The notes beneath the pieces are model-generated. The model did no database searches, was not told the DNA's origin, and saw nothing but the letters and a program-made list of their open reading frames with translations. Made by a program: the position numbers and the translations under genes. From a virus (taxonomy: Duplodnaviria; Heunggongvirae; Uroviricota; Caudoviricetes), in IMG/VR virus record IMGVR_UViG_2778261177_000006: a stretch of 37,010 bases of DNA; one strand, 5' to 3'. Of this stretch, positions 1 through 36,017 are shown in pieces (within the stretch, counting starts at the first letter, position 1; each line of letters starts with the position of its first letter).

Positions 1-1293
<1,293 letters not shown>

Positions 1294-1866: not shown

Positions 1867-1926
1867 CAGCCGAAAGGCACCCGCGCGTAATCTATCGCTT
1901 TTTTGTTACTCCGGCAATTCTGCCTG

Positions 1927-2187
1927 TTAATTCTGAGGTAAAGGCAAGCTCATCTGATTGTTTCCCCTGTGTGAAGCTGGCAGCTCATGCCACGGGATAC
2001 CTTCTGATGAGTGAACGCCGGAGGCGTGTTTCGATGTGAATTTATGGAAAGCTTCCAGTGTTGAGAAGCATACGCCGCATTCCAGGTTGTTACACTGGTA
2101 ATACTTTTGCCGCACGGTGTTTGAATCATTTTCCGGACGACTGGTGCGGATACGGGCAGATGCGCCACAAAGCGGACAACGGAACAT
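1927..2187 (-). CDS. ogr: Ogr/Delta-family zinc-finger late-gene transcriptional activator (86 aa)
   Basis: N-terminal CPLC and downstream CNNLEC form a C-x2-C...C-x4-C finger; small basic protein; AAGGGAGG before the ATG; sits next to tail gene D as ogr does in P2. Confidence 0.8.
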   Translation of the reverse strand: MFRCPLCGASARIRTSRPENDSNTVRQKYYQCNNLECGVCFSTLEAFHKFTSKHASGVHSSEGIPWHELPASHRGNNQMSLPLPQN

Positions 2188-2229
2188 AGCGACCTCCCTT
2201 AACGTGGTGCTGCCGCTATTCTAAGTTCC

Positions 2230-3339
2230 TCACTCTGTTTCCGCTATCCATTCCGGGATTTTTGCCTCAAGCTCAAGCTGTGTGGTAAAGCCACTGTTAT
2301 CAATGGTGTGCTCGGCTTTCGCAATAATCCAGTCCTGATTATCAATCTCGCTTTTAAATCCTGTTACCGTGCCATGCATTTCGGGGTAGAGTTCTGCGCG
2401 TCCGCGTGCCAGTGTGATGGAGAATGATGCGGCTCCGCGTTGTAGCTGCTGCCACTTTGCCGCCGCTGCGCGTCTTGCTGCCTGCTCGTTCTGATAAGTC
2501 TTGCGTAACACAAACACATTGCCTTCCGCGCCTTCCATATAATCACCTTCACGGCTGCTGCTTTTCTCCTTTTTGGGTTTTGGCGGTTTGCGGCGTTTCA
2601 CGCTGACTTTTTTCTTTTTCCCGTAATTAAGATCAAGCCAGTAAGCGCGTACCCCCGTATACGCTTCGCGGTCAGCAATGCGGAACTGATGGCGATCGCC
2701 GCTGCTGCGTGTAATGGCGAACGAGGGCAACGGCTGGCCCTGCGCGTTCACACCACCACCTGGCATGATGAATAACAGATTGCCGCTTTTTACCGTGGTG
2801 ATTGCGCCCAGCATTTCCGCCATGCGCGTAAGGAAGGACATGTCGCTTTCTTCGGTCTGGTCGGCGTGGTCGATTTCGATATCCATCAGCATTTCGCTGA
2901 TTTGCGGTTTCAGACCGTACCGATGAGCGATGGCGGATACCACACGCTCAACGGTCACATCATGCCAGGACACCTCTCGTTTAACGTTAAATTCATCCCG
3001 AAAATCTGCGCTTCTGGCTGAAATGGTCAGTCTGTCGGGCGGTCCTTCATGAGCAATTTCATCAACAATGTAAGTGCCTTTTTCTGTCAGCGGTTCTCCT
3101 TTCCAGCCAATGAGAACCGTCAGGCGCGCGCCCCGTGGCGGTAGCTGCAACTGACCATCCGCATCATCCAGCGTGATGGTGAGCTGGTCCGCTTCAAATC
3201 CCCGGTTGTCGGTCAGTGACAGGCTCATCAGGCGCTCTGCCACGCCGGACAGCGTTTCCCCCTCCGCGAGAATATCAAAATCCGGCATTTTCACGGGGTC
3301 TGTGCCCTGACTGAGCAATTGCATGGTGGTGTCGGTCAT
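2230..3339 (-). CDS. D: Tail protein D (late control gene D family), start chosen at MTDTT with GGGAGGG RBS
   Basis: About 369 aa, P2 gpD size; adjacent to ogr; translation has the character of the Phage_GPD family; contains an internal lysine-rich stretch (KKKKVSVKRRKPPKPKKEK). Confidence 0.8.
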   Translation of the reverse strand: MTDTTMQLLSQGTDPVKMPDFDILAEGETLSGVAERLMSLSLTDNRGFEADQLTITLDDADGQLQLPPRGARLTVLIGWKGEPLTEKGTYIVDEIAHEGPPDRLTISARSADFRDEFNVKREVSWHDVTVERVVSAIAHRYGLKPQISEMLMDIEIDHADQTEESDMSFLTRMAEMLGAITTVKSGNLLFIMPGGGVNAQGQPLPSFAITRSSGDRHQFRIADREAYTGVRAYWLDLNYGKKKKVSVKRRKPPKPKKEKSSSREGDYMEGAEGNVFVLRKTYQNEQAARRAAAAKWQQLQRGAASFSITLARGRAELYPEMHGTVTGFKSEIDNQDWIIAKAEHTIDNSGFTTQLELEAKIPEWIAETE

Positions 3340-3495
3340 CTTTCCCTCCCTGTGCGGCATAGTCGCATGTGCGTGCGGAGGGGGTTACTGCTTTTTGTTG
3401 TCGCCGTGGCGGGAGAACGGCGCAGGGGTGAGATTACGCGCGTGGTGGGTGATGATTGTTGCCGAATCATTTAACGGATACAAGGGGCTGAAGCT

Positions 3496-4680
3496 ATGAG
3501 TGAAACTCGTTTTCATGGTGCCCGTGTTACGGAAAGTACCGACCTGGTAACAGCGATTAATGATGTTGATTCCAGTGTTATCGGTATCGTGGCAACGGCG
3601 GATGATGCGGATGCGGAGCTGTTCCCGCTGAACAAGCCCACACTGCTGACCCGCGTCAATGACGTGCTGGGAAAATGCGGAACAACGGGGACGCTTTATC
3701 GTGCGCTTAAGGCCATCGCAGACCAGGTGAGCACAAAGGTGATCGTCGTTCGCGTGGCTGAACACAAAGAAGAAGACGGAAAAACGCAGGATCAACTGGT
3801 TATCGGTGGTTCTGAATCTGACGGCAGCTATACGGGGATGTATGCGCTGCTTGTTGCAGAGCAGGATGAAAGCATCGGATACCGTCCGCGTATTCTGGCC
3901 GCGCCGGAGCTGGACACGGAGGCGGTAACAAAATCCCTGTGCGTGATTGCGGGTAAACTGCGCGCGTTTGTGTATGCCTCATGTCACGGCTGTAACACGA
4001 TGGCTGAGGCGATTACCTACCGCCAGAAATTCAACGAACGTGAGGTGATGCTCTTATGGCCGGACTTCATCGCCTACAACCCGAAAAGTGGCAAAAACGA
4101 AACGTTCCCCGCGCCTGCCTATGCGTGCGGCCTTCGTGCGTACATTGACCATGAGCAGGGCTGGCACAAATCGCTGTCCAACGTTCCGGTTAAAAATGTG
4201 CTGGGGATGTCCAGGCATGTGTTCTGGTCGTTGCAGGCCGAAGACAGTGATGCCAACAGCCTCAACAACAAAGAAATCACGACCATTATTCGTCGCAACG
4301 GGTTCCGCTTCTGGGGCAACCGCACCCCGGAAACGAACGCCTACATCTTTGAGGTGTATACCCGAACCGCACAGGTGCTGGCTGATTCAATTGCGGAAGC
4401 GCAGTTTGAAACCATCGACAGTCCACTGACGCCTGCGAACGTGAAAGATGTTATCAGTGCCATCAGGGCAAAACTGGATTCACTGGTTACTGCCGGGAAA
4501 CTGATTGGGGCGTCGTGCTGGTATGACGTGGTGGATAACGGCACCACGAATTTACGTCAGGGGCGCGTGCGTATTCGCTACAAATATACGCCTGTTCCCC
4601 CGCTGGAAGACATGGAGCTTTACCAGTCGTTTACTGATGAATTCTTTGGTCCCGCATTTGCGGTGCTGGGAGGTGCCTGA
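3496..4680 (+). CDS. FI: Contractile tail sheath protein (P2 FI-like, 394 aa)
   Basis: Size and position directly upstream of the tail tube gene; AAGGGG RBS 8 nt before the ATG; stop overlaps the next start (ATGA-type coupling). Confidence 0.9.
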   Translation: MSETRFHGARVTESTDLVTAINDVDSSVIGIVATADDADAELFPLNKPTLLTRVNDVLGKCGTTGTLYRALKAIADQVSTKVIVVRVAEHKEEDGKTQDQLVIGGSESDGSYTGMYALLVAEQDESIGYRPRILAAPELDTEAVTKSLCVIAGKLRAFVYASCHGCNTMAEAITYRQKFNEREVMLLWPDFIAYNPKSGKNETFPAPAYACGLRAYIDHEQGWHKSLSNVPVKNVLGMSRHVFWSLQAEDSDANSLNNKEITTIIRRNGFRFWGNRTPETNAYIFEVYTRTAQVLADSIAEAQFETIDSPLTPANVKDVISAIRAKLDSLVTAGKLIGASCWYDVVDNGTTNLRQGRVRIRYKYTPVPPLEDMELYQSFTDEFFGPAFAVLGGA

Positions 4681-5192
4681 TGGCTGTACCAAAACATCTT
4701 CGCTTTTTTACGCTGTTTGTGGATGGTGAAAACGAAGTGGGTAAGGTGACGTCTGTCACTCTACCTAAGCTGACGCGCAAAACCGACAGCTACCGGGGTG
4801 GTGGCATGATGGGTGCGGTAAGTATTGATCTCGGTCTGGACGACTCCGCGCTTGATGCGAGCTTTGTCATGGGGGGCGCAGTTCGTGAGCTGTTCCTTAA
4901 GTATGGCGGCACGATTGACGGCACGCTGCTGCGTTTTGCGGGTGAATACTACACCGATGCAGAAAGCGACCTGTATGAAGTCGAAATGCGCGGACGTGTG
5001 ACGGAAATTGATATGGGGGAAGCCAAACAGGGCGAAGCCACATCACACACTTACGCCATTAAAAACACCTACTACAAGCTGAGTGTTAACGATCGCCCGT
5101 TGTGGGAGATTGACCTGCTGAACTTCATTTACCGGAAGGACGGCAAGGACATTGTGCCCGATCGCATCCGTTCCGCGCTCGGGCTTGGCTGA
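4680..5192 (+). CDS. FII: Tail tube protein (P2 FII-like, 170 aa)
   Basis: 170 aa, start overlapping the sheath stop; canonical sheath-tube pair. Confidence 0.9.
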   Translation: MAVPKHLRFFTLFVDGENEVGKVTSVTLPKLTRKTDSYRGGGMMGAVSIDLGLDDSALDASFVMGGAVRELFLKYGGTIDGTLLRFAGEYYTDAESDLYEVEMRGRVTEIDMGEAKQGEATSHTYAIKNTYYKLSVNDRPLWEIDLLNFIYRKDGKDIVPDRIRSALGLG

Positions 5193-5246
5193 TAAGTAAT
5201 ATGCAGGCGGCGCAGTGCGTCGCCTCTGACTGAAAGGAGTTTCCTG

Positions 5247-5612
5247 ATGAAAGAGACGAAAAACATCGATACCGAAAACACGGTAGTTACTGACACTGTG
5301 AAAGAAACCAGTGAGCGTGGCGTAAAACTTACCCAACCAATTGAGCGAGGCGGCGAAAAAATCACGTATGTGGAGATTACCGGGGCTATTGAGCAGGCTG
5401 GATCTCTGCGAGATTTGTCGCTGTCTGATGTGCTGAATCTGAAAGCGGAATCCATGTTTACGCTGCTGTCACGCGTGACATCACCGCGACTGGATGAAGT
5501 GACGATCAAAAAAATGGCATCCCGTGACTTTATTCAGTTATGTGTGGTTGCCGTAAATTTTTTGAGCGGTGCGGACTCTGGCGGGAAGAACGAACAGGCG
5601 ACGGAAGCCTGA
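5247..5612 (+). CDS. E: Tail assembly chaperone E (121 aa)
   Basis: Small acidic protein between tube and tape measure; AAAGGAG RBS; contains the slippery heptamer used for the E' frameshift. Confidence 0.8.
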   Translation: MKETKNIDTENTVVTDTVKETSERGVKLTQPIERGGEKITYVEITGAIEQAGSLRDLSLSDVLNLKAESMFTLLSRVTSPRLDEVTIKKMASRDFIQLCVVAVNFLSGADSGGKNEQATEA

Positions 5613-5776
5613 TCACGGTTGTGTGCTTTGAGCACATAGAAGACTTTGTGGCAGATATTGCCGTTATTTTTAACTGGTCGCCCGCCGAAATCTTCATGAT
5701 GACGCCCGGCGAAGTGGTTAGCTGGCGTGAGCGGGCGGCACTTCGCAGCGGGAATGCAGACAATGAAGACTCTTGA
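5247..5776 (+). CDS. Tail assembly chaperone E+E' fusion produced by programmed -1 ribosomal frameshift
   Basis: TTTTTTG at about 5558-5564 lies in the E frame as TTT-TTG; the -1 frame stays open to 5776 (ORF-track ORF 5540-5776) and overlaps the tape measure start, as for P2 E/E'. Confidence 0.7.
5558..5564 (+). other. Slippery heptamer TTTTTTG (programmed -1 frameshift site)
   Basis: Six T followed by G read directly from the sequence, inside E and at the 5' end of the -1 frame ORF. Confidence 0.7.
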
Positions 5777-8570
5777 TATCCGGGTCGCTTTCAGCGCCGT
5801 TGACAGGCTGACCCGGCCTGCCGAAAACGCCCGCCGCCTGATGGGGCAGTTTGGTGACTCCATTCAGCGAACGCAGGGGGCGATCAAAAATCTCGAGCGT
5901 CAGGCGCGTTCATTTGAGCGCGCCCGCGACGCGGTCAGTAAAGCGGATGCGGGTATCGTGAAAGCACGACGCCAGCTTAACGCCCTTAATCAGTTACAAC
6001 GCACGGGTACAGTGCTCAGCGAAAAACAACAAAAGCTGATGCAGCAGTTAAGCACCCGGCTTGAACGCCTGAATGAATCGCGCACACGGGAAATTCAGAA
6101 AATGCGGGAGCTTGGCGGAGAGCTGAAACGCCACGGCATTTCCCTGACAGGCAGCGATAACACCATTCAGCAGGCCATCAGACGCACCGAACAATACAAC
6201 AACCAGCTTGAACGCGAACGGCAGGCGCTTGCGCGTGTAACGCGGGCGCGTGAGCGGTATTCGCGCGCGCAGGAAACAGCGGGAAAACTGAAAACAGGTG
6301 GTGCGCTGGCAATTGGTGCGGCAGCGGCGGGCGGCTATGCTGCCGGGCGTTTTTTGCAGCCTGCGATCGGGTTCGGCAAAGAGATGTCCCGCGTTCAGGC
6401 ACTGACGCGAATCGACAAAAACAGCCCGCAGTTTAAGGCGCTGCGTGAGCAGGCGTTAAAACTTGGCTCTGAAACACAGTTTACTGCGAGTGATGCCGCC
6501 AGTGGGCAGAGCTTTCTGGCAATGGCTGGTTTTACTCCGCAGGCCATTCAGGCCGCATTGCCCGGTGTTCTTAATATGGCGCTGGCAGGTGGCGTCGAAC
6601 TCGGCGAGACGGCTGATATAGGCTCCAATATCCTCACACAGTTCAACCTGACAGCCGATCAAATGGACCGGGTGGGCGATACGCTGACAGCAGCATTTAC
6701 CCGGACCAATACTGATTTACGCGCGCTGGGCGAAACCATGAAGTATACCGGTCCGGTTGCCGCAAAACTTGGTATCAGTCTTGAAGAAGCGGCGGCCATG
6801 GCCGGGATGCTTGCCAATAATGGTCTTCGCGGAAGCGATGCTGGTACGGCCATGCGCGCAAGTCTGTCCCGCCTTGCATCACCGCCAAAAGCTGCGGCTG
6901 ATGCACTGAAAGAGCTGGGGGTGTCAGTTGCTGACGCCAGAGGCAAAATGCGCCCGATGGAGGATGTGCTGCTTGATCTCTATAAGGCGACACAAAAATA
7001 CGGACAGGTGGACCAGGTCTCCTTCTTTAAGGACATCGCCGGAGAAGAGGCGTTCGTTGGTTTGCAGACGCTTGTTGCGGCGGCTGGTTCAGGAGAACTG
7101 CAAAAACTGACCAGAGAATTGCAGGGGGCAAGGGGAGAGGCCGATCGCGTTGCAAAAGTAATGGCCGATAATCTTGATGGGGACCTGAAAAATCTCGACA
7201 GCGCATGGGAAGGTCTTCGTATTCGCATCAGTGATCTGGTTGACGGTCCGCTGCGTTCTGTCACGCAGTGGCTCACGCGGGTGCTTGAAAAAATCACCTC
7301 GCTGGCGCAGGCCCATCCGGTACTGACGCGCCAGCTACTGATAGCAGGCGGTGCGTTGCTGGCAATGACTGCAACGATTGGCTCGTTGTCGCTGGTTATT
7401 GGGGTGCTTTACGGGAAGCTGGCCACCCTGCGTCTTGGTTTTGACATTCTTACCCGGTCAATGAATGTCGTCAGGGTGTTGCCTGCGCTGTGGGGAATGG
7501 TGACGGGTTCTGTTTCTTTGCTGGGAGGCGCTATCGGGGCGCTGTTCAGTCCGGTTGGTCTTATCGTGGCTGCGCTTGCCGGAGCTGCTGTTCTTATCTG
7601 GAAATACTGGGATCCCATCAGGGCATTTTTTGCCGGGGTGTTCAGCGGGATTATGGAAAGGCTGACCCCGTTGCGCGAAACCTTTGAACGGTTTGGTCCT
7701 GTTTTTGACGCAATCGGAAGCGGGATCAGCCAGGTGTTTAACTGGTTTAAATCGCTGCTGTCACCGATGGAGTCCAGCAAGGAAACGCTGGATAAATGTA
7801 CCAGTGCTGGCGAGATATTCGGTAACGTTCTTGGCGGTGCGTTACAGCTTGTTCTGACACCTGCAAAAATGCTACTGGATACGCTGGCGTGGATACTTGA
7901 AAAGCTCGGTGTGCTTCCGGATGAAGCGGAAAGGGCGCGCAAGAAAATCGAAGACGCACAGCGTGCGGCCATTCTTCAGGACAAGGTTGCCTTGCTTCAG
8001 GGGGACCTGGCGAAAATCAATCCGCCGAAGCCTGTGGAAAATGGCAATGGCACCGGAGGTGATAAACCCAAAGACAACAAACCGCTCACAGACAGCAATA
8101 CCGGGACGCTACGCAGACTCAGCAAAATTGCTGATAACACAGGTAAGCTGGTTGATGAGACGAAAAAACGCATTGGCCCCGGCGATATTGTCTTTAAGAA
8201 CCTGCCCCGCGCACTTGCTGTTCGTGGGGAGTGGCAGGAGCGGAAGATTGCACAGGTCAGTAAGCCTGCCCCCGCAATTAATATCACACCCGTGGTCCCG
8301 GCTCCGCTGCCTCCGGCGCTGGTCCCTGTTGTTGCGGCCAGCTCCCGCCCGGTGGCGGAGGCCATACGATCTCCAGTGGCATCAGTTCCTGTAACTTCCC
8401 GTAACCGGGAGCCTGTTGCCTCCGGATTTGGTGGTGAAATTCATGTTCATCTGCATAACGTTGTTACGCAGAATCCCCGCGAACTGGCGAAACTGGTCGG
8501 TGAAATGGTCAGGGCAGAGATGGAACGGCGCGCCCGTGCCGGACGTGGCAGTTTTTACGATAAAGATTGA
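5763..8570 (+). CDS. T: Tail tape measure protein (P2 T-like, about 935 aa); alternative in-frame ATG at 5754
   Basis: Long ORF after E/E'; coiled-coil N-terminus, glycine/alanine-rich hydrophobic central segments, proline-rich C-terminal region. Confidence 0.85.
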   Translation: MKTLDIRVAFSAVDRLTRPAENARRLMGQFGDSIQRTQGAIKNLERQARSFERARDAVSKADAGIVKARRQLNALNQLQRTGTVLSEKQQKLMQQLSTRLERLNESRTREIQKMRELGGELKRHGISLTGSDNTIQQAIRRTEQYNNQLERERQALARVTRARERYSRAQETAGKLKTGGALAIGAAAAGGYAAGRFLQPAIGFGKEMSRVQALTRIDKNSPQFKALREQALKLGSETQFTASDAASGQSFLAMAGFTPQAIQAALPGVLNMALAGGVELGETADIGSNILTQFNLTADQMDRVGDTLTAAFTRTNTDLRALGETMKYTGPVAAKLGISLEEAAAMAGMLANNGLRGSDAGTAMRASLSRLASPPKAAADALKELGVSVADARGKMRPMEDVLLDLYKATQKYGQVDQVSFFKDIAGEEAFVGLQTLVAAAGSGELQKLTRELQGARGEADRVAKVMADNLDGDLKNLDSAWEGLRIRISDLVDGPLRSVTQWLTRVLEKITSLAQAHPVLTRQLLIAGGALLAMTATIGSLSLVIGVLYGKLATLRLGFDILTRSMNVVRVLPALWGMVTGSVSLLGGAIGALFSPVGLIVAALAGAAVLIWKYWDPIRAFFAGVFSGIMERLTPLRETFERFGPVFDAIGSGISQVFNWFKSLLSPMESSKETLDKCTSAGEIFGNVLGGALQLVLTPAKMLLDTLAWILEKLGVLPDEAERARKKIEDAQRAAILQDKVALLQGDLAKINPPKPVENGNGTGGDKPKDNKPLTDSNTGTLRRLSKIADNTGKLVDETKKRIGPGDIVFKNLPRALAVRGEWQERKIAQVSKPAPAINITPVVPAPLPPALVPVVAASSRPVAEAIRSPVASVPVTSRNREPVASGFGGEIHVHLHNVVTQNPRELAKLVGEMVRAEMERRARAGRGSFYDKD

Positions 8571-8576
8571 GGAGTC

Positions 8577-9071
8577 ATGGCCATGATGATGATCTACGGC
8601 ATGTTTGTTTTTGAGCTGCGCACGTTGCCGCATCAGCAGTTACAGCAAAATAAAAGCTGGCGGCATGTGAAAAATGAACGCGTTAACCGTTCAGCAAGCT
8701 GGCAGTATATCGGGGCAGGCGATGATCGTATTGTTCTTTCTGGTGTGCTTTATCCTGAAATTACAGGTGGTGAAGTGTCACTGTCGCTGCTGACCACGCA
8801 GGCGTATACAGGACGCCCCTGGCCTCTTATTGATGGCGTCGGGCAGATTTACGGCATGTATGTTCTGACCGAAACGAATACGACCCGTTCCGAGTTTGAT
8901 CGCTACGGTAAGGCGAAAAAGATAGAATTTTCACTGACCCTTGAACGCTGTGATGAGGATTTGCGGGAGCGCCTGCAATCCTCATCGTTCAGCGATATGC
9001 TGTCCGGCTTCAAAGATAAGGTGACATCATCTCTTAACAGCGCAACCAGTTCAGTTAAAGGGCTGTTCTGA
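8577..9071 (+). CDS. U: Tail protein U (164 aa); true start may be the third ATG at about 8583
   Basis: Size and position directly after the tape measure; GAGGAG RBS overlaps the T stop. Confidence 0.8.
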   Translation: MAMMMIYGMFVFELRTLPHQQLQQNKSWRHVKNERVNRSASWQYIGAGDDRIVLSGVLYPEITGGEVSLSLLTTQAYTGRPWPLIDGVGQIYGMYVLTETNTTRSEFDRYGKAKKIEFSLTLERCDEDLRERLQSSSFSDMLSGFKDKVTSSLNSATSSVKGLF

Positions 9072-9080
9072 ATTAACGCA

Positions 9081-9118
9081 AAAAACCGCTAATGTTCAGA
9101 TTAGCGGTTTTCTTTTTC
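9081..9118. terminator. Bidirectional rho-independent terminator between convergent U and G
   Basis: Stem aaccgctaa/ttagcggtt flanked by an A run and a T run; lies between the ends of two convergent genes. Confidence 0.65.
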
Positions 9119-9325
9119 CTGGATCTGCCTGGTTGTTTCTTCAGTCTGTATATCGCCTATGGGGCTCACAGCTACGGCTGGGCATCATTTCCGACGAGAA
9201 TAAACAAAAATTAACCGAATGGATGCTCTACGCGTAGAAAGTCGAATCCACAGACACCTCCGGCCTGCCAGTAACGTTTCCCGAACAACCAGAATGAGAG
9301 AAGGCCCGATATCGGAGCTTAATTT

Positions 9326-9853
9326 TTACTCAGGCTTTTGTGGCCATTCGGGCTTTGCTGTATCCACACGGCTGACCAGAACGCTGTAGCGTTCCCAGGC
9401 TTCCAGTCGTGTGCGCTCCTCATCCGTCGCCATATTCAGCCTGACAGCGCGTTCCAGCTGCTGGATGACTGATTCAGCTTCGGAAAGCAATGCGGCCTTT
9501 TGTAATTCGGCCTGCTGTTGCTGCTCGTCTGCCGTATAAATCCGTTTAACCACAGCTCCGTCCTTAAACAGCCACTTTCCTGAATCGTCGGCGCGACGAT
9601 TGGCGGTGATATCGGGAACTTCGACAACGCTGTAGCCTGTAGGGTCCAGTGTTGAAGCGTCTCTGGTTACGGCCACAATAATATTGTTCTCGTCGTAAAG
9701 AATTTTTATTGTGTCCGGCTGAAAGTTCTTCACTTCCTCATACCAGTTTTTTCCGTCTTCTGACCACAGCCAGGCAACATTAAAATTTTTTGTTAGCTGA
9801 TATTGCTCAACGGTTTTTGGATTGCCGGCGACAATGTTTTTTAAATGCTGCAT
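9326..9853 (-). CDS. G: Tail fibre assembly chaperone (P2 G-like, 175 aa)
   Basis: Directly downstream of the tail fibre gene on the same strand; size typical for this chaperone family. Confidence 0.8.
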
Positions 9854-9856
9854 AAA

Positions 9857-12592
9857 TTACACCTGTGACACGTTGTACCACGTTCCGTTAATTAACTTTT
9901 GTATTGGTCTGAATACTGCCGGATCGTCGCCATCAACTTCGCCGACAATGCCAAGCCCGGTAATTACATGGCCTGATTTCTCATACATCACGCCTTTTTG
10001 CATGGTCTGAACAACACGTGTGCCAAGTCGGACATCCCTCACGTATCGGCCATCAAAATTGCCGTAATCCGAGGGGTTAACGCGCCCCGTAATATTTACG
10101 GTTTTATTACTCTGAATGCTTCCGGAAACAAAGCGCATAACATGGACGTTATTAGCATAAACATCCAGATTACCATCGCCATTTTGTTTAAAGCCCGTGT
10201 CATTATCACCCAAAACAATCGAATTACCGCCAAGAGCACTGGATGTTCCGATACCCAGAGCACCATTCAATTGACCACCAGATAACGACAGTGCACCGAC
10301 ATCTCCCGCTGTAGGTTTTCGCGTTGTGGTATAAAACTCAGACCAGTCAGCCTCGAATCCGTAACCGTCACGAGCAGAACGATAAAAAATACCGCCGTTC
10401 TTATAATTAACGCGGAACTGGGCGGCGGGGCAACTTCCTTCACCGATATTAAAATGAAGAATTAACGTTGATGCCCCACCAATATTTGCGTTATAGGCTC
10501 CGCTACTCCAGTTCCATCCAACGGCTTTATCATTCGCAACGGTGTCTCCTGTTTTTCCTGAAGCAAATGCACCAATATTTTTCGGCGTCAGGTTAATATC
10601 TGATGTCCCATCAAACGAAACGTTATTAATTTTACGGGCTGTTTTCAGCTTTGTTGCTGTCGCCGCATTGCCGGACAGTTCACCAGAAAGGCCAGCACTG
10701 AATGTTTGTTTCGCGCCCCATGTCTGGGCTTCGTCAATGATTGGTACTCGTCTTGCTGTGATCGTGCGGCTTCCCGGATTTCCTGAAATACGCACCATAA
10801 AAAAGCGGTAGTTCGCTTTACTTACAGTGCTGCGCCATACATGCATTGAGCGCCCCGTACCGGAATCATCACTCGGACCAACTGCGATGTTTATCAGGTT
10901 GCCATCAATGACGCCCCAGTCCATACCGTCGGGAATATTGGTCATATTATCCAGCCGAACGGTTATCAGACTGCCCGGCACAAAATCGTAGGTCTGCCAG
11001 TCCAGACTGGATAGTTTTGCCACTGCGCCACCGATGCCCAGATTCAGGGGAAGTGAATAAGATGTGTAAACTTCCCGCCATTCGCTCCATGAGCTGCCGG
11101 TAAAAACGCGCTCAAACGTGCGACCTTTAAGGGTTGTACCTGTTCCGGCAGTTGTATAACGCTGCCATACGTTAACACCATCAAAGCGCCTCAACACTTC
11201 CAGAATACCGAGGACTGTCACGCCGTTTCCGTCCAGTATTGGACCGTTGGTCGCTTTACCTGTAACGCTGTAAATACCTGGTGAAGTCACATCATTCAAA
11301 TCCCCGTCGTAATAACGACTCTCTGACTGATGACCGACTCTTAACCACGGTTCCCACTGCGGATTTGATGCATCCCAGCTTGCCGCAAGGCAGCGGACGT
11401 ACATATTTCCACGGCGAGTGGTATAACGTTGCGTTCTTCCATAATTCCCGCCTTCGAGGATCTCAAGCGTCCCCTGAGCAAAGCCGCCTTCCTCTGGATA
11501 ATTGCGTTCATATGAAGCTATAGCCGAGCTACTGTTACGCCATAAACCAAGATGCTCGGCGGCTCCAAGCGTATTCAGGTCTATAGTCGTACTCAAAGGG
11601 CGGGTAGCTGATTGAGTGTGACGCCATATGCCCCACGGACCATCAGAGCCATTCCACTTATTGGCGAGTCTGCGCATGTATACATTGCCGTCTCTCGTGG
11701 TGAAGCGTTGCGTACCTGCAAAATTGCCGGCAGCAAAAACCTCAAGCACACCGACAGCATTATCTTCCGGGAAATTTTTCTCCAGTGTTGCGTTAGTTGA
11801 GGTAGCTTTAGACCAGATCCCCAGATAAGCCTTAACGGGACCAAATGTATTCAGATCAGCATCAAGCGGCATTTCGCCATTGTTTTTCATAAACGTCAGG
11901 CTGGTAACGCCAACATTGCCCAGAAAAGCGCCCTTATCTGGAATATCGCCACCGTTCTGGTCTTTCTGCAGACGTTTCTCAGCATTGTCATAGGCTGCTT
12001 TTACTGCCTTTGGCGTTGCCGCCAGCTTTTCACTGGTGCTGTTTGTTGCACTGCTTAACTGGGTAAAACCTTTTTCTGTCAGCGTGGCGTCAGGATGGCG
12101 GCGGGATTGCTCATGCTCTGCGATTTTGTCATCGACGTAATCCTGCGTCGCCATCACTGTGCTGGCATCAATACTCAGCTCAACGGACGCCACGTTGCTG
12201 ACAATAATAACCATGCGGCAGGTCTGCGCGCGCCCGGAGCCTTCAGCGAGTTCAGGTTTATAGCTTTCCGCCATGTTAGCGACCGCAATCAGTGTTCCGG
12301 CATCGTCATACAGACCCAGCTCACGCATCCAGAAGCCGCCCACTTCTGGCGGTACAACCAGTTCAGCCACGATATAGTTTTTATTCTTGTTATCCACGCT
12401 GACTTTATTCAGAGCGTGACGCCAGACCTCATGCACCAGTTTCGTCTGACCGGCATCCGGCACCGGCAATTTGCCATTACCGTCACCCACGGCCATTGCA
12501 GACAGAGTTACTTTTTTCCCGCCGGGGACAGTGGCGGCTGCCAGCTTCGCGGCTCCGGCAGTAGTGATAACGGTTTTAAATTTCGTGCTCAT
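9857..12592 (-). CDS. H: Tail fibre protein (P2 H-like, 911 aa) with internal repeat modules
   Basis: Conserved N-terminal baseplate-attachment region followed by repeated segments (FPEDNAVGVLEVFAAGNFAGTQRFTTR / YPEEGGFAQGTLEILEGGNYGRTQRYTTR) and a Gly/Asn-rich C-terminus. Confidence 0.85.
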   Translation of the reverse strand: MSTKFKTVITTAGAAKLAAATVPGGKKVTLSAMAVGDGNGKLPVPDAGQTKLVHEVWRHALNKVSVDNKNKNYIVAELVVPPEVGGFWMRELGLYDDAGTLIAVANMAESYKPELAEGSGRAQTCRMVIIVSNVASVELSIDASTVMATQDYVDDKIAEHEQSRRHPDATLTEKGFTQLSSATNSTSEKLAATPKAVKAAYDNAEKRLQKDQNGGDIPDKGAFLGNVGVTSLTFMKNNGEMPLDADLNTFGPVKAYLGIWSKATSTNATLEKNFPEDNAVGVLEVFAAGNFAGTQRFTTRDGNVYMRRLANKWNGSDGPWGIWRHTQSATRPLSTTIDLNTLGAAEHLGLWRNSSSAIASYERNYPEEGGFAQGTLEILEGGNYGRTQRYTTRRGNMYVRCLAASWDASNPQWEPWLRVGHQSESRYYDGDLNDVTSPGIYSVTGKATNGPILDGNGVTVLGILEVLRRFDGVNVWQRYTTAGTGTTLKGRTFERVFTGSSWSEWREVYTSYSLPLNLGIGGAVAKLSSLDWQTYDFVPGSLITVRLDNMTNIPDGMDWGVIDGNLINIAVGPSDDSGTGRSMHVWRSTVSKANYRFFMVRISGNPGSRTITARRVPIIDEAQTWGAKQTFSAGLSGELSGNAATATKLKTARKINNVSFDGTSDINLTPKNIGAFASGKTGDTVANDKAVGWNWSSGAYNANIGGASTLILHFNIGEGSCPAAQFRVNYKNGGIFYRSARDGYGFEADWSEFYTTTRKPTAGDVGALSLSGGQLNGALGIGTSSALGGNSIVLGDNDTGFKQNGDGNLDVYANNVHVMRFVSGSIQSNKTVNITGRVNPSDYGNFDGRYVRDVRLGTRVVQTMQKGVMYEKSGHVITGLGIVGEVDGDDPAVFRPIQKLINGTWYNVSQV

Positions 12593-14373: not shown

Positions 14374-14951
14374 TGCGGGCCTCCTGTCGAATCGCTGCCG
14401 CCTTTCACGCCACCGTGTTTATGCGTATGCACGGTAATGCCGTTTGAGGTGAAGTTGCCGCCGCTGTGCGTGATATGGCCGCTCATCTTTCCTCCTTTTG
14501 TGACGTCAAGCGTCGCCGTTCTCAGAAGGTTTGTGCATTCCACGACGGGCGTATCCAGTGTCACGCTGACGGATGCCTGCAGGGTGGCTGTTTTCATGCC
14601 GCTGGCGCTCAGTGCGCCTGCGTCCGCGTCGTAGCGGAACACCGCGCCATCCGGCGCGCTGACCACGATTTCTTTCAGGCTTTTGCCGGGGGCCGGACTG
14701 GCATCACTCCACAGGCTGCCAATTATCATGGCGGTTTCCGGGTTGCCGCCAATGCAGGCAATTACCACCTGTTCGCCTGGTGATGGCGGCAGCCACACAT
14801 TGAAGGCTCCCGCGCGCGTGGTGTTCCAGCGCAGCCAGCCTGTTTCCAGTTCGCCGCTGCGAACGCGCACGCGCCAGGACTTCTCATCAACTTCAGAGAT
14901 GATCCCGGTGCGGATGATATTGCTCAGCAGTCGCATGAGTTCTGCGCTCAC
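14370..14951 (-). CDS. V: Baseplate spike/assembly protein V (193 aa)
   Basis: Position and size; Gly/His-rich C-terminal tail typical of spike proteins. Confidence 0.85.
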   Translation of the reverse strand: MSAELMRLLSNIIRTGIISEVDEKSWRVRVRSGELETGWLRWNTTRAGAFNVWLPPSPGEQVVIACIGGNPETAMIIGSLWSDASPAPGKSLKEIVVSAPDGAVFRYDADAGALSASGMKTATLQASVSVTLDTPVVECTNLLRTATLDVTKGGKMSGHITHSGGNFTSNGITVHTHKHGGVKGGSDSTGGPQ

Positions 14952-16320: not shown

Positions 16321-16588
16321 CTTTTGCAATATCGTTGCGTAGCTGTTCACGTCTTACCTCTCCGTCCTGATTGCGTTGCTGATTTTCCACGCGGAGTTGC
16401 GCCAGCACCTGCTGCATATCCTGTACCCCGGCGCTGATGATATTCAGGGTGTCGGCGGTACTTTTCAGGGTGCTGGCCTGCGCTTCGTTTCTGGCGTTCT
16501 CCCGGCCCAGCGACCACGACAGACGCATGGATGTTCCCCATCCGGCAATCAGAAGGAAAGCGACGCCAAGCGTGGGCCAGAGCTTCAT
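16181..16588 (-). CDS. Inner-membrane spanin (LysB/Rz-like), start at MKLWPTLGVAFLL
   Basis: N-terminal transmembrane helix then a charged coiled-coil region; ATG overlaps the endolysin stop. Confidence 0.6.
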   Translation of the reverse strand: MKLWPTLGVAFLLIAGWGTSMRLSWSLGRENARNEAQASTLKSTADTLNIISAGVQDMQQVLAQLRVENQQRNQDGEVRREQLRNDIAKDECAHALPDARFTDRLRRHAERATASAVSPAYTADADHTGNASPLP

Positions 16589-20855: not shown

Positions 20856-21009
20856 AGTTTTTGCCCCTCTGACTGGTTCTTCAGTCATGATGGCAAAGCG
20901 TAACAGGCTGATACAAAGGGCTTTTGTTGTAAGAAAACGGCCAGAACAGGGGGGTAAGGAGAACGGTTTCGCGCGCGGGTAATCTTCCTGTAATTACTCA
21001 GGGGGAGCA
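20856..21009. promoter_or_regulatory. Divergent late-promoter region between scaffold O and terminase P
   Basis: Intergenic stretch separating two divergent late operons; no canonical TGT-N12-ACA Ogr site was found by eye. Confidence 0.35.
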
Positions 21010-24471: not shown

Positions 24472-24844
24472 GACTCTCCAGCTCCTGTATCAATCAGATA
24501 ATTTCGCGACGTCTTCCGACTTATCGCTATCATCGACGGCCAGACTCTTACACAATCCCGCCGCGCTGACTGCATGTTCTCGCCGCCTCAGTGCGATTTT
24601 GACGGCCTTACCTTTCATCCCATCAAATCAGAACACCTTACGTCTTTTTCACGCTCAGCGTGAGCGATACAGCCATTTTGTTGTGTCGCTGCGACATCGT
24701 TCAGGGAATGCTATTTACCCCCTGAAACGCGGGCTGTTCCCCCGTCACCTGCGCGCAGAAAAAGCGCGTTTTTTTGTGCACGCACGGATCCTTGACGGAT
24801 CCAGCCGCCATGCGGGCCGGAAGGGTAAAAAGTCGTTCAAAAAA

Positions 24845-25648: not shown

Positions 25649-25963
25649 TCACTCTGGGAAAAATGACTGAATGTTCTTTCTTATCTCGCTAGTGCTGTGA
25701 TTGCTTCCGGTGGCAGGTGCGCTGGCATATTTACTCTGAATATTATTCTTGGCTGGCGCAGCTCCTTCTTCCGGCCATTCGGCCAACCAATAGGCAAATG
25801 CAGGATCGCGTTTTATGAGTGCCAGCCCGGCCAGAAAGGCCGCGCGTTGCGCGCGGCTGCGTTCAGAGGCTGGCAGGCTGTCGAGGTAATTACACGCCTC
25901 CCGTTCACTATTGACGGCGACTGGCTTCAGATAGAAACTTATCCGTCTGGTTGGTGTCGTCAT
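25649..25963 (-). CDS. parR: ParR-like ribbon-helix-helix centromere-binding protein (about 104 aa, start at MTTPTRRISF)
   Basis: RISFYLKPVAVNSEREACNYLDSLPASERSRAQRAAFLAGLAL closely parallels plasmid R1 ParR (RTIAFKLNPDVNQTDKIVCDTLDSIPQGERSRLNRAALTAGLAL); AAGGAG RBS; immediately downstream of parM. Confidence 0.75.
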   Translation of the reverse strand: MTTPTRRISFYLKPVAVNSEREACNYLDSLPASERSRAQRAAFLAGLALIKRDPAFAYWLAEWPEEGAAPAKNNIQSKYASAPATGSNHSTSEIRKNIQSFFPE

Positions 25964-25967
25964 TGGT

Positions 25968-26927
25968 TTACTCCTTGTCCATTGCGTACAAACCATTGAC
26001 CAGAGCAAACTGTGGCACCCCGTCCGCGATGAAAGTCGCATTAACTCCGCAGGCTTCGCGGATAGCGGGTGCCACAATCTCCGCCCCGCCACCGACAACC
26101 ATCACCCGCCCGTAACCCGAAAAACCCGCCAGCGCGCGGATCACTCGTTGTTTCAGCGTTTCTTCCTTTTCACGAATAACCGCCATCAGGCTGTCGTAAT
26201 GCGCGTCATTGTGGATGTGCTGGCGCAGCCAGGCTTCATCGTGGCGATGTTCGATAATGGTATTGGCGATATGGTGACTGGTACGCATACCGTTAGTGGC
26301 CATCACCGACAGTACGGCATCGGCCATCAGGGAAACGCCTACGTGTGGATCGCAAAACACCTGGCTGATACCTGCCAGTTGTCCCTGGACCTTTGCCACA
26401 TCCAGCGTGGTTCCGCCTAAATCCACAATCAGCAGGGATTCAAACGGACTCATGTCAGCCAGTGCTTTAAAACCAGCCGGAATGGATTCAGGCATAACCC
26501 GTACGTTACGGATAGTGAATGCTTTTCCGTTCTGGTACGCCACCGGGCGCATGACGTTTGCTTTTTTGCGGTTGATGTTGGCCATGTCCGGCTGTGCGTT
26601 TGTGTCGAAATATTCGCTCAGTGGCAGGGTGACAACCACATCCACTTCCTGTGGTGTGATGCCTGATTTGACCAGCGCGTGATGAATGGCAATGACATTC
26701 ACATCGCTGTACTGGTATTGCGTGTCGGTCGTCTGGACAAAGCGATCGCTGACCGGATCAAAACCATAGCGCACGCCATCAAGCATGTAGTTTGCGGGCT
26801 GCGTGCCACCGAACGGCGCAGACCATTCCGACTTGAAGCTGTTCGGGCTGATGGCGTTGCGGCGTTCGCCGTTCTCAGTCCATGCCAGCTTGATGTTGGT
26901 GGAGCCGTCGTCGATACAAATTTTCAT
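25968..26927 (-). CDS. parM: ParM/StbA-family actin-like segregation ATPase (319 aa)
   Basis: Near-complete colinearity with R1 ParM landmarks: IDDGSTNIKL, SPNSFK, YSDVNV-A-HHAL, KKAN, VMPESIPAG, DLGGTTLD, GVSL, VMV-GGGAE, LVNGLY. Confidence 0.85.
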   Translation of the reverse strand: MKICIDDGSTNIKLAWTENGERRNAISPNSFKSEWSAPFGGTQPANYMLDGVRYGFDPVSDRFVQTTDTQYQYSDVNVIAIHHALVKSGITPQEVDVVVTLPLSEYFDTNAQPDMANINRKKANVMRPVAYQNGKAFTIRNVRVMPESIPAGFKALADMSPFESLLIVDLGGTTLDVAKVQGQLAGISQVFCDPHVGVSLMADAVLSVMATNGMRTSHHIANTIIEHRHDEAWLRQHIHNDAHYDSLMAVIREKEETLKQRVIRALAGFSGYGRVMVVGGGAEIVAPAIREACGVNATFIADGVPQFALVNGLYAMDKE

Positions 26928-29832: not shown

Positions 29833-30198
29833 TTACTTCGTCATGCCATTCAGGGTGTCGCGGCAGACTGTAGCCAGCCGCTGAATTTCCAGCACGGTGT
29901 CTTCTGTGTCGGCATGGCGATGTGTGATGCGGATGCTGTCGGCAATCACATCGACGATTGCAGAGGATGGGCGCTGGTAAATGCCAATAACGGACGGGGT
30001 GCCACCTTCAATGCGGTAAAGCCTGTAATTTCCCTCGTGGCTGTCAATCATGTAGCGACCATCAATAACAATCTTTCCGTCAGCGAGCTGCGGTACAGGC
30101 AGGGATTTCAGGTACATGTCATAACGATCACGCACGCGAGCGGCAAGATCACGTTCTGTGTTGAGCAGGTATTCAAGAAAGTCGTTGGCGAGAATCAT
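29833..30198 (-). CDS. Hypothetical early protein, 121 aa
   Basis: Immediately upstream of A and co-directional; no family recognised. Confidence 0.5.
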   Translation of the reverse strand: MILANDFLEYLLNTERDLAARVRDRYDMYLKSLPVPQLADGKIVIDGRYMIDSHEGNYRLYRIEGGTPSVIGIYQRPSSAIVDVIADSIRITHRHADTEDTVLEIQRLATVCRDTLNGMTK

Positions 30199-30270
30199 TG
30201 CGGCAATCCTCTTGTTACAGATGTGCGAAGGCCTCCCGCCGCAAGGTGCAGGAAAGGCCCGGAACAGGAA

Positions 30271-30501
30271 TTAATGGAGTTTGTTTTGCTGCTGGATGAG
30301 CTGTTGAAGCTCGTGCAGATCATCCGCCAGATAGCTGAAAACAGCGGCGGAATAGATGTTTGATAGTGCGTGGCTGCGCTCATGCAGCATATTGATGTGC
30401 ATGATTTGCGCGACGCGTGATGCGCGGAAAAGTCTGCGGTTGATTTCAGTCTGGATGTGACGACGCTCCGCGATAGCGCGGTGCTGTTTGCGGTTTGCCA
30501 T
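30271..30501 (-). CDS. Hypothetical early protein, 76 aa
   Basis: Small basic protein upstream of the replication genes; no family recognised. Confidence 0.4.
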   Translation of the reverse strand: MANRKQHRAIAERRHIQTEINRRLFRASRVAQIMHINMLHERSHALSNIYSAAVFSYLADDLHELQQLIQQQNKLH

Positions 30502-30680
30502 GGTGTGGCCTCGTACGTAGTAAGTTTTAAAAACTCACCATCCAGAGGTGGAAAACTCGGGGTGGTGAGACGTACAGGGTTTCCACAACCGGCTACGCAC
30601 GAATCCGGCCCGACCGAAGTCGGCCCTGTACGCCCCACCATAATTCTGACGCGAAAAAGACGTGGCGATACGGTACGCAC

Positions 30681-30701
30681 AAAAAAACCGCTGGCGCGGT
30701 T
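30681..30701 (-). terminator. Minus-strand rho-independent terminator (aaccgc-tggc-gcggtt plus T7 on minus strand)
   Basis: 6-bp stem preceded on the plus strand by an A7 run, i.e. hairpin plus U tract when read on the minus strand. Confidence 0.55.
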
Positions 30702-30837
30702 GTGCGCGTGCATAGTCAGCGGGGTGGAAATCCCGGCACCCGTTTTATGAGGTGCAGCGGAAATGTAACCTGACTGATTGCGGCATGGCAAGCGGTTTTT
30801 TTGTGAGAACGGCATACTAAAAAATCCTGATACTGCT

Positions 30838-30868: not shown

Positions 30869-31699
30869 TTACTTCACCGGAACAAACGGAACAGCGGTAT
30901 TGCTGGTCATATATTGCGGCAGCGTGCCGTTCCATTTGTTGATTGCTTCCAGCTCCATAACGCCGGGATTCTGACGCAGAGCTTCACCGCGTAAACGAAT
31001 GGCGTCAGCTTCAGCCTGGGCTTTTGTGCGAATGGCATCAGCCTGTCCGGCAGCTTCTGCGCGCAACATGTTGGCTTCAGCTTCGCGTTGCTTGACTTCC
31101 TGTTCGCGTTGCAGGGTTTTCTGGTTTGCCGTGACTTTGGCGTTAATGCTGTCGATAACGGTTGGCGGATATTCCGGTTTACCGACATAAGAGAGGCTCA
31201 TGACCTGAATGCCGATGGGGGTCATCTCTTCCTGAATATCTTTAAGTGCTGAATCCAGCAGTTCAGACTTACCACCGTCGATAAACTTATCGGTGGTCAT
31301 TTTGCTGGCCAGTCGGTTGAGTGCATCGGCGATCTTCTGGCGCAGGTCAGTGTCGGTAATGTCATCCACGCCTTTGCGGTAGGTTTGAAACACTGTGGTA
31401 ACTTTGGATGGATCAACCTTGTAGGCCACACCGATGTGATAGCCGATGGTTGTGCCGTCACTCATCTGAAAGCTGAACGGCTCATCGTAGGTCTTCATTT
31501 GTTTGAAGGTCGGGAAGATGTAAACCTCGGTATTCCAGCCAGTCCAGTAGCGGCCAACGCCAACCACTTCGCCAACGCCTTTGTCGTCGCCCAGCTTGTT
31601 GACTTTGATGCCCACATTACCTGGCTCAACGCGATCGCAGCCAACCAGCAGGATGGCGGCAAAAAGCGGGAGAATCTGAAAGAGTTTGAATTTCTTCAT
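30869..31699 (-). CDS. SPFH/band-7 (prohibitin/stomatin-like) domain lipoprotein, 276 aa
   Basis: N-terminal signal peptide with lipobox (LLVGC); SPFH core (GNVGIKV...) followed by an Ala/Glu-rich coiled coil (AEANMLRAEAAGQADAIRTKAQAEADAIRLRGEA). Confidence 0.8.
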   Translation of the reverse strand: MKKFKLFQILPLFAAILLVGCDRVEPGNVGIKVNKLGDDKGVGEVVGVGRYWTGWNTEVYIFPTFKQMKTYDEPFSFQMSDGTTIGYHIGVAYKVDPSKVTTVFQTYRKGVDDITDTDLRQKIADALNRLASKMTTDKFIDGGKSELLDSALKDIQEEMTPIGIQVMSLSYVGKPEYPPTVIDSINAKVTANQKTLQREQEVKQREAEANMLRAEAAGQADAIRTKAQAEADAIRLRGEALRQNPGVMELEAINKWNGTLPQYMTSNTAVPFVPVK

Positions 31700-35948: not shown

Positions 35949-36017
35949 CTTTACACATTGAGCGAATTACATATCGCAAGGAGTGTTTAGTTAATTTATC
36001 CGTTGGAGGGGCTAATC

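Follow-up and report, generated by a model that had tools for sequence, protein, structure and literature searches.

Oppositely oriented FI–U tail genes in a P88-like prophage are a fixed order of a large branch of the Peduoviridae, most likely from one old inversion

The record of phage P2 reads J, I, H, G ... FI, FII, E, E', T, U, D and ogr, on a single strand throughout. In the stretch of DNA analysed here (37,010 nucleotides, IMG/VR virus record IMGVR_UViG_2778261177_000006; hereafter the window), FI, FII, E/E', T and U (3496-9071) are on the plus strand, and the flanking D/ogr and G/H are on the minus strand. The window departs from the colinear arrangement of P2, in which G ... FI, FII, E, T, U, D and ogr share a strand. 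A sequence-only reading of the window had proposed either a functional variant with new promoters or a rearrangement or misassembly, and it raised the idea of an artefact because the order differs from that of P2. Our data indicate with high confidence that the opposite FI–FII–E/E'–T–U is the fixed order of a large monophyletic branch of the Peduoviridae, most likely the result of one old inversion.

The gene identities and strands proposed by that reading were confirmed with PHROGs and Pfam. The ogr/Delta-type zinc-finger late activator gene (1927-2187, minus strand; Pfam Ogr_Delta, E 5e-14) lies 42 bp downstream of D, and its product is 41.5% identical to P2 Ogr across 51 residues of the window protein. 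D, the tail/baseplate hub gene (2230-3339, minus; phrog_52, Pfam Phage_GPD), is outside the inverted block. On the plus strand follow the genes for the tail sheath FI (3496-4680; phrog_23, Pfam Phage_sheath_1), the tail tube FII (4680-5192; Pfam Phage_tube, E 7.5e-47), E (5247-5612; phrog_103), the tape measure T (5763-8570; phrog_28, Pfam PhageMin_Tail) and the tail protein U (8577-9071; Pfam Phage_P2_GpU, E 5.5e-39), the last gene of the inverted operon. The tail-fibre assembly gene G (9326-9853, minus) is convergent with U and is followed by the tail-fibre gene H (9857-12592, minus); phrog_136/phrog_381 were the matches for G and H together. PHROGs, Pfam and tblastn with P2 proteins found full-length homologues of FI, FII, E, T, U, D, G, H, I and J in the window. 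Gene lengths in the window are those of phage P88, that of T included. The slippery site T_TTT_TTG (5558-5564) is in the correct zero frame, and the -1 frame is open until TGA at 5774-5776, so that E+E', judged directly by the reading frames, runs over 5247-5776 by a -1 frameshift; the annotations of PhiR44_2, P88 and BCE049 also include E'. The inverted genes are intact, including the frameshift, as had been claimed. An ATG at 3360, given in the open reading frame list as the start of D, was rejected in favour of the ATG at 3339, which is behind a Shine-Dalgarno sequence (GGGAGGG) and agrees with the annotation of PhiR44_2. With this start, the divergent interval between D and FI is 3340-3495, as the earlier reading had placed it. 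Because the P2 order is all on one strand, re-inverting about 3390-9115 would restore it, and the suggestion that one inversion is sufficient holds.

Judged by its sequence, the window holds a prophage of the P2 family that belongs with P88 (Xuanwuvirus-type) and is integrated beside serS. Alignment to P88 covers 82% of a 24.7 kb part at 95.6% identity and 71% of an 11.0 kb part at 95.4%, which gives about 75% of the prophage overall at about 95% identity, the overall value being a rough product of coverage and identity. Members of one ICTV genus resemble its type phage across the genome by at least about 70% in nucleotide sequence, and the value of about 75% against P88 lies above this. The window also has the Xuanwuvirus order, with ogr-D on one strand, FI-U on the other and G-H-I-J back on the first.

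The order recurs widely. The tail region of the window is colinear at 92-97% nucleotide identity with those of P88, PhiR44_2, P884B11, Citrobacter phiSM and 500465-2, the annotated strands in P88 and PhiR44_2 are identical to those of the window, and PhiR44_2 aligns in one piece across both junctions. About a quarter of complete E. coli genomes (1358 of 5426) contain the D/FI junction uninterrupted. We classified 86 P2-type sources, 80 of them genome loci taken as the closest hits for the window's D rather than sampled at random; 52 were inverted, 33 canonical and one undetermined, and two further phage loci beyond these added one inverted and one canonical. The inverted set includes 48 species-representative genome loci and independently sequenced phages. 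It covers three ICTV genera (Xuanwuvirus, Senquatrovirus and Reginaelenavirus) as well as prophages whose hosts belong to over 20 enterobacterial genera. An assembly artefact, in which the true molecule has the canonical P2 order, has practically no chance of being correct. Nothing in its favour was found: the contiguous junction in the 1358 genomes, the single PhiR44_2 alignment across both junctions and the recurrence of the order in independently sequenced phages and the species-representative loci are all against it, and it is already refuted because independent assemblies agree. The second of the earlier proposals, a rearrangement or misassembly, is refuted. Comparison of gene order with relatives, suggested at the same time, found the arrangement to be the norm of a sub-lineage that includes P88, SEN4, Reginaelenavirus and many prophages, an outcome that the earlier reading had itself named as refuting.

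Phages with this order have been shown to make tailed, plaque-forming particles. P88 (PMC5285337) and phiSM (PMC6456863) form plaques and their tailed particles have been imaged, and SEN4 has myovirus morphology (PMC5261728). This bears on a recent, private rearrangement that crippled the tail operon of this one prophage, which might be suspected from the separation of D from U and from the absence in the window of the invertase present in P88. We regard this as very improbable, since all the genes are intact with the frameshift site included, P88, phiSM and SEN4 make infectious tailed virions with the same order, and the order is common to a clade in which D has diverged to 61% identity and T to about 26%. 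Among the classified loci, a D at least 61% identical to that of the window always accompanied the inverted order, and a D at most 54% identical always accompanied the canonical order.

In neighbour-joining trees of D, FI, FII and U, built without bootstrap and rooted on phiCTX, inverted loci were monophyletic and canonical loci paraphyletic. The outgroup phiCTX has the canonical order, as do outgroup Burkholderia phages (PMC3091744). The single clade in all four trees points to a single old inversion. J was not monophyletic. This speaks for a replacement of the FI-U module by a homologous module from another phage, inserted backwards, without any inversion in place, and so does the mosaic tail region, with G 87% identical to P2 G and residues 1-200 of H 86% identical to P2 H, against just 46-49% for the FI, U and D proteins (49% for D). 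However, D, though outside the block, delimits the same clade and is as far from P2 as FI, FII and U are, the activator box on the FI side retains the spacing of the P2 promoter pF (see below), and a single inversion explains everything with one event. Replacement of the module is therefore unlikely, although less so than the alternatives above. In the single inversion that we favour, one breakpoint would lie just upstream of the pF activator box and the other between U and D.

The junctions themselves were searched for signs of a programmed switch. The sequence-only reading had reported no flanking inverted repeats, and this was borne out in a comparison of 3340-3495 with 9072-9325, in which the best pair was 15 nt at 87%. 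Neither junction has a gix/cix-like core (AAACC-NN-GGTTT) nearby, and the window has no serine invertase gene. The 254 bp between U and G consist of a terminator and a gene relic. The terminator scan and folding place a bidirectional intrinsic terminator at 9082-9111 between the convergent genes; its hairpin, with folding energies of -15.7 kcal/mol (plus strand, z about -5) and -16.6 kcal/mol (minus strand, z about -4), is followed by a U-run on each strand. The operon that ends in U would now stop at this terminator, and so would the convergent H-G genes. The relic (9157-9297, plus strand) was found by alignment to P88 and derives from an alternative tail-fibre assembly gene, G'; its translation ends in GIISDENKQKLTEWMLYA and a stop, and in strain BCE049 the corresponding sequence is annotated by PGAP as a partial pseudogene. 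The E. coli BCE049 prophage matches the window at 100% at the U/G junction and adjoins flk, and the window adjoins serS. P88 differs from the window in having about 1.95 kb between U and G with a DNA invertase and alternative H'/G' genes, and the alignment indicates that the G' relic remained after loss of the invertase and the invertible segment that P88 carries at this site. A DNA invertase adjoins U in P88 and in many relatives, and FI-U might accordingly be imagined as a programmed segment flipped by a site-specific invertase, as in Mu G or P1 C. This is highly improbable. The window has neither junction repeats, nor an invertase, nor a gix/cix-like core; the invertase of P88 serves the adjacent H'/G' tail-fibre segment; and the order is invariant across the branch, with one orientation in 52 of 52 inverted-clade members and no reverse case among close relatives.

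An inversion of FI-U leaves D-ogr and FI-U to be transcribed divergently from the interval between them. In most canonical loci the gap from U to D is within about 10 nt; the D gene of the window has its own ribosome-binding site, which may replace the tight U-D coupling of P2. The D/FI control region of the window is 156 bp (3340-3495), and among 50 inverted-type loci the equivalent interval measures 140-180 bp with a single exception, of 276 bp. Direct comparison of the D/FI and O/P intervals gave a useful box motif, TGTTGT-N12-AGAAC, which matches as a single predicted P2-type activator (Ogr) box at 3396-3418 (inner dyad TGT-N12-AGA 3399-3416, centre 3407.5). In P2-type late promoters the dyad TGT-N12-ACA is centred about 55 nt upstream of the start, and transcription depends on Ogr and the alpha subunit of RNA polymerase. 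The inner dyad of the window is one base off this P2 consensus, reading AGA where P2 has ACA; more distant members of the clade have a perfect ACA in the box, and the D/FI interval of L037, a Salmonella prophage placed next to SEN4 by the D tree, matches TGT-N12-ACA perfectly. The Ogr/Delta zinc-finger activator is encoded by the window phage itself. Of 49 unique inverted-type D/FI intervals, 45 have a single TGT-N12-A(C/G)A box whose distance to the FI ATG is 78-90 nt; shuffled intervals gave 0.23 positioned boxes on average and never more than 3. The loci are related, so that the counts overstate independent support, but TGT and A.A are kept across them while the 12-nt spacer is free to vary. 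In four of 50 inverted-type loci no box could be recognised. In canonical loci the pF box is about 80-86 nt from FI, which matches the inverted-type distance, and the box of the window is as far from the FI ATG as the pF box of P2 is, about 83 nt. The earlier proposal of a functional variant with promoters in 3340-3495 is supported, but the novelty of the FI-side promoter is doubtful: going by motif and spacing, it is probably the old pF activator box, moved with the FI operon and now also facing D.

The motif is informative only with its surroundings. Strict TGT-N12-ACA has two exact matches in the window, neither at a late operon, and with one mismatch allowed the number of matches (164 against 170 expected) is noise. 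There are 20 loose matches to the box in the window, and the full architecture is present only at D/FI and O/P. A perfect TGT-N12-ACA at 24679-24696 is not accompanied by -10-like hexamers where these would be expected, and a two-mismatch copy of the box (16496-16518, minus) was discounted as it is within a lysis gene and without the inner TGT. At D/FI, predicted -10 hexamers are found 44-49 nt from the box centre on both sides: GATGAT for the FI operon (3451-3456, plus strand; predicted start about 3463) and GACTAT for D-ogr (3359-3364, minus strand; predicted start about 3352). Profiles anchored on the box (42 unique sequences) showed a conserved hexamer G-A-t-N-A-T at +44 to +49 on the FI side and a conserved pattern aA.cAT at +44 to +49 on the D side. 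A second, exact copy of the motif is at 20925-20947 in the divergent O/P interval, with the -10-like hexamers TAATCT (+44 to +49) on the P side and CATCAT (+45 to +50) on the O side; alignment to P2 gpO places the true O start at 20855. According to the P2 record, one activator site serves pP/pO, and transcription starts 55-57 nt on either side of it.

The dyad-symmetric Ogr box probably travelled with FI and would now, from its place between FI and D, activate both the FI-U operon and the D-ogr transcript, each starting about 55 nt from its centre as at P2 pP/pO. It is less likely that the box serves FI alone and that D-ogr has an independent promoter. The D leader predicted from a shared box is very short, only about 13 nt; the D ATG is 65-98 nt from the box, which is more variable than the 80-88 nt on the FI side; and the P2 record gives ogr its own promoter. 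On the other hand, the -10-like hexamer on the D side is conserved at exactly +44 to +49, the mirror of the FI side, and the same mirrored layout is present at O/P in the window and in P2. A simple generic sigma-70 scan also found no good promoter in the D/FI interval, which is expected if the promoters there are activator-dependent. We give about even chances to the wider proposal that the clade drives all its late genes from no more than two bidirectional nodes, at O/P and at D/FI, with one dyad-symmetric Ogr box apiece, and that the symmetry of the pF box let the 5.7 kb tail-gene inversion be viable at once, with the orphaned D-ogr gaining late control.

The order itself has little discovery value. 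It is already known from GenBank records of isolated, ICTV-classified phages and is present in about a quarter of complete E. coli genomes. An explicit description of the inversion was not present in the literature found, which does not cover Casjens and Grose 2016, the likeliest source, and the P88, phiSM and SEN4 papers never apply the words inversion, inverted or orientation to this order (PMC5285337, PMC6456863, PMC5261728). For annotation, FI-U opposite to D and H/G should not be taken as a flag of a prophage defect or misassembly. The inverted order is a clean marker, and apparently a shared derived character, of one large P2-like branch. The one point of biological interest is the putative Ogr box shared between D and FI, which would be a simple account of why the inversion is tolerated. 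If late control from O/P and D/FI proves true, it would be a concrete case in which the symmetry of an activator site cushions a large rearrangement of an operon; no description of such control with a symmetric pF box was found in the literature.

Comparison with known systems places the locus within the P2 family. P88 and its relatives are identical to the window in gene content, order and strands from ogr to J and share its ParM cassette, SPFH-domain gene and hok-type gene; the P88 group differs from it in the distal H tail fibre. The F operon of P2 has the same genes, the same internal order from FI to U, the TTTTTTG E/E' frameshift and ogr after D. In the window, unlike P2, FI-U is inverted relative to D/ogr and H/G, U ends the operon, and D is uncoupled from U and needs separate transcription. 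SEN4 (Senquatrovirus) and Klebsiella phage Kp4871-3 (Reginaelenavirus) have the inverted FI-U and the divergent D/FI interval of the window, but they belong to other genera, their D proteins are 64% and 70% identical to that of the window, respectively, and their early regions are unlike. The colinear order is typical of P2 and not family-defining, since three ICTV genera are inverted. Segments switched by Gin, Cin or Pin (Mu G, P1 C) resemble this locus in having a reversed block of tail genes, and relatives of the window have a neighbouring invertase; however, the window has no crossover repeats or invertase, the orientation in the clade is fixed, and the block contains sheath, tube and tape-measure genes, not fibre tips. 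The closest parallel to the predicted control of D/FI is P2 pP/pO, where, as at O/P in the window, two divergent late genes have one dyad box halfway between them and transcription begins about 55 nt away in either direction. P2 has this shared-box layout only at P/O, whereas the window would have two, at O/P and, as predicted, at D/FI.

The window carries serS at one end (1-1293, plus strand) and an integrase gene at the other (36003-37010, plus strand), with a complete P2-family prophage between them. Searches against PHROGs and Pfam agree with the gene assignments of the sequence-only reading. On the minus strand lie ogr (1927-2187) and D (2230-3339), on the plus strand FI (3496-4680), FII (4680-5192), E (5247-5612), T (5763-8570) and U (8577-9071), and again on the minus strand G (9326-9853) and H (9857-12592), beyond which come I, J, W, V, S and R, all minus. 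In the P2 record, J I H G, FI FII E E' T U D and ogr occupy one strand throughout, so the FI–U block of the window is inverted relative to P2 and a single inversion restores the P2 order, as had been proposed. The true start of D is the ATG at 3339, with GGGAGGG upstream, which confirms the divergent interval 3340-3495. The E/E' frameshift, described as intact, is so: the slippery heptamer T_TTT_TTG at 5558-5564 is in the correct frame, and the -1 frame stays open as far as 5776.

The same order is present in other phages. Thirteen phage records cover at least 80% of 1900-10000 colinearly at 92–97% identity (megablast), among them Escherichia phage P88, PhiR44_2, Xuanwuvirus P884B11, Citrobacter phage Shae_phiSM and 500465-2. 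One unbroken alignment with PhiR44_2 spans both junctions of the inverted block, and the strands annotated in the P88 and PhiR44_2 records are identical to those of the window. About 75% of the whole prophage is common to P88, the type species of the ICTV genus Xuanwuvirus, at approximately 95% identity, a degree of sharing consistent with membership of that genus. Phages of the inverted order work: P88 and phiSM are temperate, plaque-forming and imaged by electron microscopy (PMC5285337 and PMC6456863, respectively). An uninterrupted match to the 551-bp D/FI junction (3150-3700) occurs in 1358 of 5426 complete E. coli genomes, including O157:H7 strains, which rules out both a misassembly and a private rearrangement. 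Of the two readings left standing earlier, a functional variant holds and a rearrangement or misassembly does not; the inverted order is not unusual and is not an artefact.

The spread of this order was examined by a scan of one genome per bacterial species, using an alignment of the D proteins of the window and P2 as query, which gave 80 loci; FI, FII, E, T, U, D, ogr, G, H, I and J were placed in each by tblastn. The classified set of 86 sources, made up of genome loci, the window, six phage records and the chromosomal locus of E. coli BCE049, contained 52 inverted and 33 canonical members and one unclassed, in which neither U nor FI was found. Two more Klebsiella phage loci, classed separately, were one inverted and one canonical. 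Identity of D to that of the window separates the two orders cleanly: at 61% or more a locus is always inverted, at 54% or less always canonical. The host genera of the inverted members are Escherichia, Salmonella, Citrobacter, Enterobacter, Klebsiella, Kosakonia, Trabulsiella, Edwardsiella, Serratia, Erwinia, Pantoea, Pectobacterium, Brenneria, Symbiopectobacterium, Izhakiella, Xenorhabdus, Photorhabdus, Providencia, Morganella, Hafnia, Rouxiella, Dryocola and Yersinia. Salmonella phage SEN4 (Senquatrovirus), which has myovirus morphology (PMC5261728), and Klebsiella phage Kp4871-3 (Reginaelenavirus) also have the inverted order. P2, Kapieceevirus and phiCTX have the canonical order, as do Burkholderia phages KS5, KS14 and KL3 (PMC3091744).

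In each of the D, FI, FII and U trees (neighbour-joining without bootstrap, rooted on phiCTX), the inverted loci are monophyletic and the canonical loci paraphyletic. The simplest reading of these trees would be one ancient inversion in the ancestor of the inverted branch, and the inversion has been retained while proteins diverged to 55–61% (FI, D) and approximately 26% (T). A programmed invertible segment is excluded, because our search, like the sequence-only reading, found no inverted repeats flanking the FI–U block, the window has no invertase, and the orientation is invariant. Insertion of a foreign FI–U module backwards is a less probable alternative, being less parsimonious, since D lies outside the block yet marks out an identical clade that is equally far from P2. 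A fixed, clade-wide gene order is very probably the explanation of the inverted block. Comparison with close relatives shows it to be common to a known sub-lineage, and the arrangement counts as already known because annotated, deposited genomes from three ICTV genera show it plainly. The P88, phiSM and SEN4 papers contain no explicit mention of the FI–U inversion, and wider literature searching found none.

The variable end of the inverted block is the U/G interval (9072-9325), and its exact junction occurs in only 14 of the 5426 E. coli genomes. P88 has a DNA invertase and H'/G', an alternative tail-fibre segment, here (approximately 1.95 kb), whereas the window has lost the invertase, H' and most of G'; 9112-9325 is a deletion scar. 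What is left joins the terminator behind U to the 3' portion of G' (9157-9297), which has a premature stop. The same G' stretch is a partial pseudogene in E. coli BCE049 (PGAP). The hairpin 3' of U folds well on either strand (-15.7 and -16.6 kcal/mol), has a U-run at each side, and is predicted to act as terminator for the two convergent operons. G and P2 G share 87% identity, and the first 200 residues of H share 86% with P2 H, whereas FI, U and D are only 46–49% identical to their P2 counterparts; moreover, J is not monophyletic and departs from the clade tree (neighbour-joining). From these differences it follows that baseplate and fibre genes were exchanged separately, and that G/H were swapped with P2-type phages independently of the other tail genes.

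The BCE049 prophage (NZ_CP042250.1) is otherwise near-identical and is integrated next to flk, not serS; prophages of this type integrate at no fewer than two sites. PGAP gives its D (2420-3273) as a CDS cut to 801 bp and a partial fragment, and tblastn finds 99% identity over 2423-3529, so the shortening may be an annotation issue. Between ogr and serS, a 46-aa Hok/Gef-family toxin ORF (about 1596-1736, minus), annotated too in P88 and BCE049, has no Sok-type RNA above the Rfam threshold. A plasmid-type partition cassette (25649-26927, minus) encodes an actin-like ATPase of the ParM/StbA type (319 aa, E 7e-82) together with a 149-aa Plasmid_stab_B protein; it is unexpected for an integrating P2-like phage and also present in P88, phiSM and P884B11. 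In the early region, Rfam matches to C4 antisense RNA (77.5 bits) and the Hfq-binding RNA isrK (62.2 bits) at 30558-30755 (minus) adjoin or fall within an Ash-family ORF (30195-30815), which suggests a P1/P7-style c4 RNA-controlled antirepressor module. A 276-aa SPFH/Band 7 domain protein is also encoded there (30869-31699, minus), and one is named in the P88 GenBank record.

The U-to-D gap is within approximately 10 nt in most canonical loci, and D of the window has its own Shine-Dalgarno sequence. After the inversion, D would be cut off from pF transcription through U. For 6 kb upstream of D its strand carries nothing, and a terminator intervenes, so D must be transcribed from 3340-3495. This interval has a single TGTTGT-N12-AGAAC motif (3396-3418), which is repeated exactly just once more in the window, within the divergent O/P interval (20925-20947). 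A TGT-N12-A(C/G)A box centred 78–90 nt from the FI ATG was present in 45 of 49 unique D/FI intervals of the inverted clade, against a mean of 0.23 and a maximum of 3 in 500 shuffles, although the loci are related and the counts overstate independent support. Across the clade TGT and A.A are kept while the N12 spacer is free to vary; more distant members have ACA, the perfect P2 consensus, from which the window box is one base off. In canonical loci the pF box lies approximately 80–86 nt from FI, the same distance, and the box evidently moved together with the FI operon.

When the sequences are anchored on the box centre, conserved -10-like hexamers with A second and T sixth line up at +44 to +49 on each strand. 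The window has GATGAT (3451-3456, plus; predicted start near 3463) and GACTAT (3364-3359, minus; predicted start near 3352), leaving a predicted D leader of only about 13 nt. The O/P box has a mirrored layout likewise, with TAATCT facing P and CATCAT facing O, once the start of the scaffold gene O is set to 20855; the listed ORF start at 20888 is probably wrong, as an upstream GAGGGG and alignment with P2 gpO place the ATG at 20855. Loose matching of the box to the window gave 20 hits, of which only those at D/FI and O/P have the full architecture. A perfect TGT-N12-ACA at 24679-24696, one of only two in the window, has TGTTGT as its left half and is situated within the cargo region that separates Q from the ParM cassette, with no -10-like hexamers at the expected spacing. 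A degenerate copy (16496-16518, minus) falls within a lysis gene. S and V overlap (14948-14951), leaving no intergenic room for a P2-style pV promoter, and the O operon may extend without a break as far as G, approximately 11.5 kb.

A single Ogr box between D and FI would thus drive FI–U and D–ogr in opposite directions, a mechanism that we moderately favour on the layout of the motifs. A separate promoter driving D is a live alternative, which concerns the mechanism only. The possibly new part is only the inferred bidirectional use of a pF-type Ogr box. For one Ogr box acting in two directions, P2 itself is a precedent, since its record annotates the divergent pP/pO promoters with one activator site, with mapped starts 55–57 nt either side of the centre.
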